Positions 20,627 through 23,674 of a stretch of DNA of 64,000 nt are shown here, piece by piece (the stretch's first letter is position 1; every line of letters starts with the position of its first letter). The translations under genes and the position numbers were made by a program. The notes below the pieces were generated by a model. That model was not told where the DNA came from. It searched no databases and saw only the letters and a program-made list of their open reading frames with translations. The stretch is from NCBI RefSeq assembly GCF_054482525.1, contig NZ_CM137006.1; one strand, written 5' to 3'.

Positions 20627-23600
20627 TTACGCCTTCTCGATGTTTACTAAGAACGCTTTATATTCCGGCGTTTGCGAGTTTGCATCACCGACATTAGGCG
20701 TCAGAGTGTTAGCGATATAACCTTTGCGCGCGACACCCTCAAAGCCCCAGTGGATTGGAATACCCACCGTTTCAACCTGCTGACCGTTTACATTCAGCGG
20801 CTTCAGACGGCGCGTTACCACAGCCACCGCGCGGATAAAGCCACGCTTGCTGGATACGGTGACACGGTCGCCATTGGCGATGCCTTTCGCCGCCGCCAGC
20901 GTTTCGCTGATTTCCACAAACTGTTCCGGCTGAGCAATTGCGTTGAGCAACGCGTGCTTTGTCCAGGTATGGAAGTGCTCGGTCAGACGATAGGTCGTAC
21001 CCACATACGGGAACTGCTCTTTTTTACCCATCCGCAGCGCGTCTTGTTCATACAGACGAACCACCGGGTTAGACACCACGTTCGGATGCAGCGGGTTAGT
21101 GCCCAGCGGCGTTTCGATTGGCTCGTAGTGTTCCGGGAACGGACCTTCCGCCATTTTGTTGATGGCAAACAGGCGTCCCATCCCTTCCGGCTGCATGATA
21201 AACGGCCCGGTTGGCGTACCCGGTGCGGCATTGCCGAAGTCCGGAATATCGTTACCCGTCCACTTGCTGCCGTTCCACTGGATCAGCATCCGTTTCGGAT
21301 CCCACGGTTTACCGTTGATATCCGCCGAAGCACGGTTGTAGAGTACGCGACGGTTGAGCGGCCACGCCCAGGCCCATCCCAGCGTATTCCCCAGACCGGA
21401 CGGATCGGAGTTATCGCGGTTAGCCATCTGGTTGCCCTGCTCTGTCCAGCTACCGGTGTAGATCCAGCAAGAAGATGCGGTTGTACCGTCATCACGCAGA
21501 TGCGCAAAGCTACTCAGCAACTGACCTTTCTTCGCAATCAGCACGCCATTAGCATCATAGAGATCTTCCAGCGCATAGCCGTTGTTCTCTTTAGCTACTT
21601 CGTCAGATTGCGGTTCGTGCGGCTGCTTGTAGTTCCAGCTCATCTTCATCAGCGGTTCTACGCCTTTACCACCTTCGGCCTGGTACAACTCGCGCAGATG
21701 ATGGTAGATACCCGCCAGAATTTCGCCGTCGTTACGCGCTTCGCCCGGCGCGTCCTGACCTTTCCAGTGCCACTGTAACCAGCGACCGGAGTTAGCGATA
21801 GAACCATCTTCTTCAGCAAAGCAGGTCGAAGGCAGACGGAATACTTCAGTCTGAATAGAAGCCGGATCGACATCGTTCGACTCGCCGTGGTTCTGCCAGA
21901 AGGTAGAGGTTTCAGTCACCAGCGGATCGATAACCACCATGTACTTCAGCTTGCTCAGGCAGCTCACCACTTTGTTTTTGTCCGGGAAGGACGCAACCGG
22001 GTTAAAGCCCTGGCAGAAATAACCGGTGACTTTGCCTTCATCCATCATGTTGAAATACTTGATGACGTCGTAGGTCTGGTCCCACTTAGGCAGCCAGTCG
22101 TAGCCCCAGTTGTTCTCTTTCTGCGCGGCATCGCCGTAGAAAGATTTCATCAGGCTAACGAAGAACTTCGGATAGTTGCTCCAGTAGTTCACCTGATCAG
22201 CCAGCGTCGCTTTCGGCGTGTTCGCTTCCAGATACGACTGCAAATCAACCTGTTTTTCTGACGGCAGCGTCAGATAACCCGGCAGGCTGGTTGAGAGCAG
22301 ACCTAAGTCGGTCAGGCCCTGAATGTTGGAGTGACCACGCAATGCGTTCACGCCGCCACCAGCCATACCCATGTTACCGAGCAGCAATTGGATCATCGCC
22401 ATGGTGCGGATGTTCTGCGCACCCACGGTGTGCTGCGTCCAGCCCAGCGCGTACAGGAAGGTGGTTGTGCGATCCGGTGCGCTGGTGGAGGCTAGCACTT
22501 CACACACTTTCAGGAAGTCGGCTTTTGGCGTACCGCAGATGTTTTCAACGACGTCCGGCGTGTAGCGGGAAACGTGCGCTTTCAGCAGGTTCCACACACA
22601 GCGCGGATGAGTCAGCGTGTCATCGCGTTTCGCATAGCCGTTTTCATCGAACTGATAGTTCCAGGACGACTTATCGTATTCACGTTTTTCAGCGTCGTAG
22701 CCGCTGAACAGACCGTCTTCGAAAGCAAAATCATCACGCACCAGCAGGCTGGCATTGGTGTAATGCTTAACGTATTCGGCATTGATTTTGTTGTTTTCGA
22801 TCAGGTAGCGCAAAACGCCAGACAGGAACGTAATGTCCGTACCGGAACGAATAGGTGCGTAAATATCCGCTACAGAAGCGGTACGCGTAAAACGGGGATC
22901 GACAACGATCAAGGTTGCATCGTTGTTGTTTTTCGCTTCCATCGCCCAGCGGAAACCGACGGGATGCGCTTCAGCAGCGTTACCGCCCATCACCATTACG
23001 ACGTTAGCGTTTTTGATATCCACCCAGTGGTTGGTCATCGCACCGCGACCAAATGTTGGAGCAAGACTTGCTACCGTTGGTCCGTGTCAGACGCGCGCCT
23101 GGTTGTCTACCGCCAGCATCCCGAGGGAGCGGGCAAATTTCTGGGTCAGCATCCCGGTTTCGTTGCTGGCACCGGAGGCACACAGCATACCGGTAGAAAG
23201 CCAACGGTTTACCGTTACGCCCTGCTCGTTCTTTTCAATAAAGTTAGCGTCACGGTCAGCTTTCATCAGCTTCGCAATACGGGAGAATGCTTCTTCCCAG
23301 CTAATGCGCTGCCATTTGTCAGAACCTGGCGCACGATATTCCGGGTAGCGCAGACGGTTTTCGCTGTTGACGTAATCCAGCAAACCGGCCCCTTTCGGGC
23401 ACAGCGCACCACGGCTTACCGGATGATCCGGGTCACCTTCAATGTGATAAATCGCTTCTCTGGCGTTTTTCGCGCCATCACCCAGGCTATACATCAATAG
23501 CCCGCAACCTACGGAACAGTATGTGCAGGTGTTACGGATCTCTTTCGCGCGTAATAATTTATAGTTTCGCGCCTGAGCCAGTGCTTGCTTCGGGGCAAAG

Positions 23601-23674
23601 CCCAATGCCGCTACTGTTGTTCCAGCCATACCGCCCGCGCAGATTTTAAAAAATTGTCTGCGACTGACGTCCAT
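20627..23674 (-). CDS. fdnG: formate dehydrogenase-N alpha subunit, selenocysteine-containing (in-frame UGA at 23087-23089)
   Basis: ORFs 23087..23674 and 20627..23038 are in one frame separated by TGA; twin-arginine signal MDVSRRQFFKICAGGMAG; combined 1015 codons. Confidence 0.9.
23040..23086 (-). other. probable SECIS element directing Sec insertion at the fdnG UGA
   Basis: sequence immediately 3' of the UGA in the mRNA contains a short hairpin (AGCAAG-UC-UUGCU); exact structure not computed. Confidence 0.4.

Follow-up and report, generated by a model that had tools for sequence, protein, structure and literature searches.

The gene on the minus strand at 20627..23674 is almost certainly E. 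coli fdnG, in which the UGA at codon 196 is recoded to selenocysteine (Sec) through a SECIS hairpin located directly 3' of the codon. All coordinates refer to the window, which is the whole 64-kb stretch of DNA that we analysed. The identity of the gene and the position of its UGA are demonstrated in the present analysis. The UGA with its SECIS is a long-known feature, and we claim nothing scientifically new for it. None of the points that can be raised against recoding argues for a different function.

Gene identity and operon context

When 20627..23674 of the minus strand was translated, it gave 1016 codons with a single internal stop at codon 196, corresponding to the formate dehydrogenase-N alpha subunit of 1015 amino acids with Sec at residue 196. 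For the protein and profile comparisons of FdnG, X was put in place of Sec196. The read-through protein scored 1619.1 bits on the NCBIfam equivalog profile TIGR01553 (cutoff 814.2), covering profile positions 1-1009 of 1009, and it aligned end to end (1-1015) with the Fdh-N alpha chain of PDB 1KQF (1KQF_A), both sequences having X at 196. RefSeq annotates a single fdnG CDS of 3048 nt with the same coordinates (L001 20128..23175, shifted by 499). Directly downstream on the same strand, profile searches revealed the other two genes of the fdnGHI operon, in agreement with the RefSeq annotation: fdnH for the iron-sulfur beta subunit (19730..20614; TIGR01582, 482 bits, cutoff 335) and fdnI for the cytochrome b gamma subunit (19084..19737; NF007558, 487 bits, cutoff 339, over all 217 profile positions). 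The profile score, the alignment with 1KQF_A and the adjoining fdnH and fdnI bear out the assignment to formate dehydrogenase-N alpha made in the preliminary description. fdnG is the first gene of fdnGHI, and its product belongs to the respiratory, nitrate-inducible formate dehydrogenase-N. The protein starts with the segment MDVSRRQFFK...ALAQA (23576..23674, minus strand), where SRRQFFK is seen in the translation and which we take, from established knowledge of Fdh-N, to be a twin-arginine (Tat) signal peptide for export.

Compared with known sequences, only strain-level variation was found. The K-12 gene (b1474) is the same gene from another strain, and it also has the UGA at codon 196, a full SECIS_3 match and the fdnGHI operon. 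FdnG of the window differs from 1KQF_A by only six substitutions in the alignment as printed, and over the gene region most other E. coli sequences are 95-99% identical to the window, with three at least 99% identical.

Reading of the in-frame UGA

The in-frame UGA at codon 196 (23087..23089, minus strand) is predicted to be read as Sec. Translation and direct reading of the letters placed it at 23089..23087, exactly where the preliminary description had put it, and residue 196 pairs with X196 of 1KQF_A. The active-site context reads ARV-U-HGP, and the Sec stands in the U-H-x-P motif, UHxP being what Table 1 of PMC13188914 gives as the motif of the formate dehydrogenase alpha family. The reference list of that article credits Berg et al. 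1991 (J Biol Chem 266:22380, 22386) with evidence from K-12 that the fdnG UGA encodes Sec.

It had been predicted that gene finders that stop at TGA would split the gene into fragments of 195 and 803 amino acids, and the mechanical ORF list contained exactly these two, at 23087..23674 and 20627..23038. A small correction to the earlier reading is that there is a gap between the two fragments: because the ORF of 803 aa begins at the first ATG, the 16 codons that follow the TGA (HGPTVASLAPTFGRGA), hairpin included, are part of neither. Both exact fragments are deposited in public protein collections, and the 195-aa one is present on at least 1000 contigs. The annotation trap is therefore real, as had been suggested together with the remark that the feature itself is known, although RefSeq has one CDS. 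We also observed that one 195-aa protein in the same cluster as the short fragment is named sulfate ABC transporter protein. A second annotated internal stop in the window, in a VgrG pseudogene, was considered as a recoding candidate and rejected because this stop is TAG.

The exact ORF pair and the deposition of both products as proteins are what would be seen if the TGA were a real stop, with fdnG being a pseudogene or two genes, or if it were a sequencing error. We give this explanation next to no chance, since several lines of evidence oppose it. Of the 5433 matching E. coli records, 5432 carry the 63-nt segment comprising the UGA and the SECIS with an identity of at least 99%, two copies being present in each genome, and 5425 of the 5426 E. 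coli genomes have fdnG. TGA occupies the homologous codon in 77 FdnG-type loci of other species from distant phyla, with the frame conserved on both flanks. The crystal structure 1KQF contains one chain of 1015 residues, a SECIS follows directly after the TGA, and the matching genome has intact sel genes (see below). In addition, PMC13188914 cites Berg et al. 1991 as having reported a full-length selenium-containing polypeptide from K-12.

Architecture of the SECIS hairpin

A covariance-model search yielded SECIS_3 (RF01989) as the sole Rfam match within the 64-kb window, at 23034..23092 on the minus strand with the UGA included. The match covers 59 of 59 model positions (1-59) at 84.3 bits (gathering score 63, E = 1.4e-18), a strength that places the hairpin beyond chance. 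Together with the covariation in 54 homologues and the loss of the helix in Cys-type genes described below, this match substantiates the earlier proposal that the short hairpin after the TGA can serve as a SECIS.

In the minimum free energy (MFE) fold of the UGA plus 45 nt, which adopts the E. coli register, the hairpin proper with its lower helix, upper helix and loop spans 23044..23084 (minus strand), and the lower helix is formed by C6-A13 with U38-G46, numbered from the U of UGA. The upper helix and apical loop (GGUAGCAAGUCUUGCUCC), delimited by covariation among homologues, occupy 23058..23075 on the minus strand. Seven base pairs make up the upper stem, which is interrupted by a single bulged U at 23073 (U17, counted from the UGA). 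The apical loop is GUC, or AGUCU when the A-U closing pair is open, with the loop G-U at 23067..23066 (G23 and U24). In fdhF, the experimentally best-studied bacterial SECIS, the bulged U and the loop GU are contacts of SelB. The spacing of U17 and G23U24 from the UGA in fdnG equals that in K-12 fdhF, and by analogy the upper helix and apical loop of fdnG would constitute the SelB-binding minihelix.

The hairpin also agrees with every bSECIS criterion of PMC13188914 that we tested. These are a loop of 3-9 nt, an upper stem of 4-16 bp, a UGA-to-loop distance of 16-37 nt (18-19 nt in fdnG), an MFE of -7.5 kcal/mol or lower (-13.8 kcal/mol in fdnG), a G as the first or second nucleotide of the loop, with G or U usually coming next, and a location within the coding region immediately 3' of the in-frame UGA.

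Folding energy was of little help. The preliminary description had proposed folding of the 45 nt after the UGA as a check, and the expected hairpin does form in the 48-nt segment at -13.8 kcal/mol. Its stability is not significantly above that of shuffled sequence (z = -1.44, with 21 of 200 shuffles equally stable), and the MFE fold of the 63-nt segment is another structure (z = -0.88). The corresponding regions of Cys-type homologues have MFE values of -12.7 to -24.9 kcal/mol and are equally stable, and for this reason we rejected plain folding of the region as a discriminating test. Since the fdnG value is no better than that of shuffles, the threshold of -7.5 kcal/mol is permissive.

Covariation in homologues and comparison with Cys-type FdnG

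We scanned genome contigs for homologues, anchoring the scan on the ARV[U/C]HGP codons only, and the 77 FdnG-type TGA loci comprised 54 distinct sequences. In these 54 Sec-type sequences, 97.1% of the upper-helix cells were paired and four of the seven pairs showed compensatory changes. The covariation score was reached by none of 500 shuffles, a control that ignores phylogeny, and sliding the partners lowered pairing to 28-58%. Many of the changes fall on synonymous third positions, such as Val GUA/GUG/GUC with GCU/GCC/GGG and Ala GCA/GCC/GCG with Leu CUU/CUG/CUC. Moreover, changes of Ala to Ser (GCx to UCC) on one arm are coupled with changes of Ala to Gly (GCC to GGC/GGG) on the other, and pairing is kept. 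In these data, RNA pairing seems to dictate the coupled amino-acid changes adjoining the active site.

Cys-type FdnG from Snodgrassella alvi, Vogesella spp. and Orbaceae belongs to the same protein family and has a near-identical active-site peptide, but unlike fdnG it has TGY in place of TGA, lacks the conserved upper helix, mostly lacks the loop GU and falls below the SECIS_3 cutoff. In this control, which consists of four FdnG-type loci only, all seven upper pairs were kept in none of the four Cys loci (mean 3.5) as against 73 of the 77 Sec loci (mean 6.9), and the loop GU was kept in one of four as against 75 of 77. The Cys-type sequences scored 38-45 bits on SECIS_3, compared with 61-84 bits for the four hairpin-bearing Sec-type sequences that were scored.

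We need to consider here that the hairpin might not be a functional RNA, its conservation being due only to protein-coding constraint on the active-site segment, or to fdnG and fdoG having converted one another. Even the Cys homologues show strong conservation of the downstream peptide HGPTVASLAPTFGRGAMTN, and they reach their 38-45 bits by primary sequence alone; the identity of 71 nt between fdnG and fdoG could stem from gene conversion, and the folding energy is unexceptional. Against this, synonymous third-position covariation is inexplicable by protein constraint, the Cys homologues have lost the helix and the loop GU despite their near-identical peptide, and the coupled Ala to Ser and Ala to Gly changes on the two arms preserve pairing. 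Evidence that an mRNA stem-loop is essential in K-12 fdnG is furthermore announced in the title of Berg, Baron and Stewart 1991, cited in PMC13188914. Based on these observations, we attach a very small probability to a non-functional hairpin, only slightly above that of a real stop, and prefer a functional SECIS.

For the lower helix of this SECIS, support is weaker than for the upper helix, with 84-85% pairing across homologues in either of two registers. The Rfam consensus register differs from the E. coli MFE register: in the E. coli type the third base of GGA pairs with the third base of GGU (A12-U45, alignment columns), whereas the Rfam consensus has C12-G44. In the window, two of nine pairs are mismatched in the Rfam register, while the alternative register pairs eight of eight. 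Judged from the aligned homologues, lineages seem to differ in which of the two registers their lower helix adopts.

Comparison with fdoG and fdhF

The paralogue fdoG, encoding the formate dehydrogenase-O alpha subunit, lies at another locus, adjoining fdhE, and also has Sec at codon 196. K-12 fdoG and fdnG share 74.6% DNA and 77% protein identity, and the 63-nt UGA and SECIS segment is nucleotide-identical between them. The longest identical run is 71 nt, starting from codon 195 and extending over the UGA and the hairpin. Since the two segments are identical, the pair is uninformative for covariation, and we used it for synonymous-site conservation instead: among the codons after the UGA that allow a synonymous change, all 16 are identical, as against 57% gene-wide. 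The 71-nt block might owe its preservation to gene conversion and not to purifying selection acting in parallel on both genes. It is conceivable, although we are doubtful, that two lineage-dependent registers of the lower helix and a block maintained by gene conversion add a new detail to SECIS evolution.

The fdhF SECIS resembles that of fdnG in its UGA-CAC-GG start, its ARV-U-HGP context, its apical minihelix, and the bulged U at +17 and loop G-U at +23/+24. It belongs to a different Rfam family (SECIS_2, RF01988), the fdhF type scoring 87.6 bits on SECIS_2 and 35 bits on SECIS_3. fdhF has a 4-nt loop GGUC on an upper stem UGCA/UGCA, whereas fdnG has one extra nucleotide (AGCAA-GUC-UUGCU) and another lower helix. 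The host proteins differ as well, fdhF encoding the cytoplasmic FDH-H of 715 amino acids and fdnG the periplasmic FDH-N of 1015.

Selenocysteine machinery and proposed mechanism

The genes selA, selB, selC and selD are absent from the 64-kb window itself. Over the two stretches compared (24 kb), E. coli SCU-102 (NZ_CP051753.1) matches the window with 100% identity, and in that genome selA, selB, selD and tRNA-Sec, which we located by synteny with K-12, are annotated with no pseudogene flags. Each sel component was found in 5424-5425 of 5426 E. coli genomes. The machinery that the preliminary description expected elsewhere in the genome is thus intact in the matching strain, and the refutation that it had named, a genome lacking this machinery, fails.

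Sec-tRNA(Sec) derives from selC, and SelA forms it by use of the selenophosphate that SelD supplies. In the mechanism that we propose, the fdnG UGA would not terminate translation but would be recoded to Sec. The mRNA directly 3' of the UGA would fold as a SECIS hairpin inside the coding sequence, and its apical part would be bound by SelB, a specialised elongation factor, carrying Sec-tRNA(Sec) and GTP, as in fdhF. Bound there, SelB would be tethered at the right distance for delivery of Sec-tRNA(Sec), which, according to the literature, it would accomplish when the UGA enters the A site, where release factor 2 would compete with it. Once incorporated, Sec196 would presumably coordinate the molybdenum cofactor in the catalytic centre as its ligand, again following the literature.

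The UGA could also be read through without Sec, for example with Trp or Cys entering by near-cognate decoding, and the enzyme would then be made in a sulfur or other form. FdnG homologues of the Cys type do occur naturally (the four loci above), so that an enzyme without Sec is viable in principle, but fdnG has a dedicated SECIS and a complete selABCD set is present, and such a product would be at most a minor by-product under selenium lack. We consider this as improbable as a real stop, and Sec insertion remains our reading of codon 196.

Implications

To judge from the titles that PMC13188914 cites, fdnG (Berg et al. 1991) was one of the early cases of a UGA demonstrated to be a selenocysteine codon, and Rfam has its SECIS as a curated family. 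Our results make it useful both as a control and as a caution in genome scans, since pipelines that take TGA as a stop report two "genes" here. They also indicate how a bacterial SECIS is identified, namely by covariance-model score, by covariation at synonymous sites and by comparison with Cys homologues, and not by the free energy of the hairpin.

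The fdnG gene and its in-frame TGA

Translation of the window showed that fdnG at 20627..23674 (-) comprises 1016 codons with a single internal stop at codon 196, and direct reading of the sequence located this TGA at 23089..23087 (-), the position at which the preliminary description had placed it. When X was put for the stop at codon 196, the 1015-aa product matched the NCBIfam equivalog TIGR01553 (formate dehydrogenase-N subunit alpha) with 1619 bits against a cutoff of 814. Directly downstream lie the genes for FdnH (TIGR01582, 482 bits) and then FdnI (NF007558, 487 bits). 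Chain A of PDB 1KQF, the E. coli nitrate-inducible formate dehydrogenase, aligns with the product across residues 1-1015, carries a non-standard residue (X) at 196, and differs from it by only six substitutions as visible in the printed alignment. In addition, the E. coli genome SCU-102 (NZ_CP051753.1) is 100% identical to and collinear with the window at 20500-23800 and 43000-64000, together 24 kb, and its RefSeq fdnG is one 3048-nt CDS with coordinates exactly equivalent to 20627..23674. The identification as E. coli fdnG, encoding the formate dehydrogenase-N alpha subunit as initially assigned, is thus supported, and the UGA is its active-site codon.

The mechanical ORF list contains the predicted two pieces of this gene, 195 aa (23087..23674) and 803 aa (20627..23038). 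The 16 codons after the TGA, HGPTVASLAPTFGRGA, form a gap present in neither piece, because the 803-aa ORF begins at the first ATG. RefSeq treats fdnG correctly (one CDS). The warning of an annotation trap was nevertheless justified, since both exact fragments have been deposited in the public protein collection, the 195-aa fragment on at least 1000 contigs and the 803-aa fragment on 75 contigs, where it has NCBI accessions and is labelled "formate dehydrogenase-N subunit alpha". In the same cluster as the short fragment, one 195-aa N-terminal FdnG fragment, EFN8991448.1, goes under the name "sulfate ABC transporter substrate-binding protein", likely an annotation error stemming from the split gene.

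Structure of the SECIS hairpin

A scan of all 64 kb with Rfam gave one above-threshold match, SECIS_3 (RF01989) at 23092..23034 (-); it scored 84.3 bits (gathering score 63; E = 1.4e-18) and covered all 59 model positions. Folding of the UGA and the following 45 nt gave a two-part hairpin (positions counted from the U of UGA), in which C6-A13 pair with U38-G46 in the lower helix, and the upper helix is formed by G15 G16 A18 G19 C20 A21 A22, with U17 bulged, and U26 U27 G28 C29 U30 C31 C32, enclosing the loop G23 U24 C25. Both the bulged U17 and the G23-U24 of the loop lie as far from the UGA as their counterparts in K-12 fdhF; these nucleotides are putative SelB contacts. The hairpin agrees with all the bSECIS features listed in the review PMC13188914. 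Its loop is GUC, or AGUCU with the A-U closing pair open (range 3-9 nt), and starts with G and then G/U (G23-U24); its upper stem has 7 bp plus one bulged U (range 4-16 bp); the UGA-to-loop distance is 18-19 nt (range 16-37 nt); and the MFE is -13.8 kcal/mol (limit -7.5 kcal/mol or lower).

The folding proposed in the preliminary description recovered the hairpin, but its energy was not exceptional against dinucleotide shuffles, either for this 48-nt segment (z = -1.44) or for a 63-nt segment (z = -0.88), and four FdnG-type Cys homologues were as stable (-12.7 to -24.9 kcal/mol). These results show that energy is the wrong test for a hairpin beyond chance or coding constraint. Since energy alone was uninformative, we used three other tests, namely covariation, the Cys homologues as a natural control, and the paralogue.

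Covariation, the Cys control and the fdoG paralogue

Genome contigs were scanned with a pattern in which only the codons for A-R-V-[TGA/TGC/TGT]-H-G-P were fixed, and at least 120 loci matched. When classed by peptide context, the matches listed comprised 77 FdnG-type loci with TGA, four FdnG-type with Cys, nine FdhF-type with TGA, ten FdhF-type with Cys and 20 chance matches. The window and the FdnG-type TGA segments gave a gap-free alignment of 54 distinct sequences, whose sources include Enterobacterales, Pseudomonas, Burkholderiales, Alphaproteobacteria, Acidobacteria and an actinomycete MAG. In this alignment the upper helix was 97.1% paired with two-sided changes in 4 of 7 pairs, and its covariation score of 0.225-0.245 was reached by 0/500 shuffles (0.12-0.13). 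When partners were slid by 1-3 columns, pairing dropped to 28-58%. Many compensations fall at third codon positions and are silent (Val GUA/GUG/GUC with GCU/GCC/GGG; Ala GCA/GCC/GCG with Leu CUU/CUG/CUC), while others couple residues, such as Ala to Ser together with Ala to Gly.

The lower helix was weaker, 84-85% paired and compatible with two alternative registers. The third bases of Gly codons 198 and 209 vary together (columns 12, 44 and 45; window 23081, 23049 and 23048), being A and U, respectively, in 9 sequences, U and A in 3, and C and C in 29. This pattern implies that different lineages may use different registers. The Rfam consensus register has two mismatches in E. coli.

In the four FdnG-type Cys homologues the peptide is almost unchanged, and the SECIS is lost. 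All seven upper pairs were found in 0/4 Cys loci (mean 3.5) versus 73/77 listed Sec loci (mean 6.9), and the loop GU in 1/4 versus 75/77. On SECIS_3 the Cys homologues scored 38-45 bits, compared with 84.3 bits for the window, and three diverse Sec-type homologues scored 61-69 bits. Two Desulfovibrio-type FdnG homologues (L050, 4122..4184 (-); L105, 756..818 (+)) carry TGA followed by a different sequence, GGUACCGGCUCUGGCAGAG, with 1-2 of 6 SECIS_3 upper-helix pairs; L050, whose hairpin differs, scored 38.8 bits, and these homologues presumably use another SECIS class.

The window fdnG and its K-12 paralogue fdoG share 74.6% DNA identity, and their longest identical run, 71 nt from codon 195 (window 23030..23100 (-)), spans the UGA and the hairpin, the next longest being 35 nt. 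After the UGA, 16/16 synonymous-capable codons agree between the two genes, compared with 57% gene-wide, and only 5/718 windows of 16 such codons are fully identical, all beginning at codons 195-200. Either gene conversion or a strong double constraint, on RNA and on protein, could account for this block. That protein constraint or gene conversion alone conserved the hairpin is contradicted by the covariation at synonymous sites and by the Cys control. The hairpin is a SECIS whose architecture is conserved and whose distance from the UGA is fixed, and the earlier proposal that it can serve as one is borne out by the SECIS_3 score, the covariation and the Cys control.

A TGA that is a true stop, through a pseudogene or a sequencing error, is excluded: the 63-nt segment of UGA and SECIS is at least 99% identical in 5432/5433 matching E. 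coli records, at two places per genome, TGA is kept in 77 distant loci among the matches listed, the crystal structure is a single chain, and a SECIS follows the TGA.

Other features of the window

The VgrG gene (type VI secretion) at 46712..48820 (-), a RefSeq pseudogene adjoining a large gene for an RHS core protein (about 42491..46645), has an in-frame stop at codon 592 (47047..47045); selenocysteine recoding was ruled out here because the stop is TAG. Between yddG and leucine-rich-repeat genes, an intact 366-aa porin gene at 25046..26146 (+), 'ompC' in RefSeq, looks like an OmpC paralogue rather than ompC proper; K-12 carries yddL, in truncated form, at this site. A seven-gene block between ddpF and osmC (about 7585..14339 (+/-)) encodes a LysR regulator, CoA transferase A and B, acetyl-CoA acetyltransferase, 3-hydroxyacyl-CoA dehydrogenase, a GntP permease and 3-hydroxybutyrate dehydrogenase. 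K-12 is not known to have such a block at this position, and it looks like an island for acetoacetate/3-hydroxybutyrate utilisation that varies between strains. The immediate downstream neighbour of fdnI, encoded on the other strand, is yddM (HigA-family antitoxin, 18748..19032 (+)), with no adjoining toxin gene annotated; the ORF list holds a longer 120-aa ATG ORF from 18670 there.

Selenocysteine machinery and mechanism

No sel genes or tRNAs were found within the 64-kb window. When K-12 selAB, selC and selD sequences were used as queries against 5426 complete E. coli genomes, selAB matched in 5425, selC in 5424 and selD in 5425. Walking along synteny in the matching genome SCU-102 (NZ_CP051753.1), we located selD (2506695..2507738), selB and selA (4477887..4481119) and tRNA-Sec (4560397..4560491), all annotated without pseudogene flags, so the machinery, whose absence would have spoken against recoding, is complete. 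In SCU-102 the selO gene, for the protein adenylyltransferase SelO, has an annotated frameshift (L005 9903..11338, outside the window); SelO, despite its name, does not belong to the selenocysteine machinery, and the frameshift therefore has no bearing on fdnG recoding.

According to established knowledge summarised in PMC13188914, SelB with GTP and Sec-tRNA(Sec) would bind the SECIS and deliver Sec while the UGA occupies the A site, melting of the lower helix would accompany the approach of the ribosome, and Sec196 would ligate the molybdenum cofactor. Sec-independent read-through of the UGA could be only a minor by-product. Evidence that the opal codon encodes Sec, and that an mRNA stem-loop is essential, in fdnG itself was reportedly given by Berg et al. 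1991 (J Biol Chem 266:22380 and 22386), as cited in PMC13188914.

Based on these observations, the in-frame UGA of fdnG and the hairpin after it are confirmed, and recoding of this UGA through a SECIS is supported. As the preliminary description stated, this feature is already known; the knowledge of it is detailed. As by-products, the analysis shows which computational tests identify bacterial SECIS and adds minor notes on the lower-helix register and the paralogue identity.
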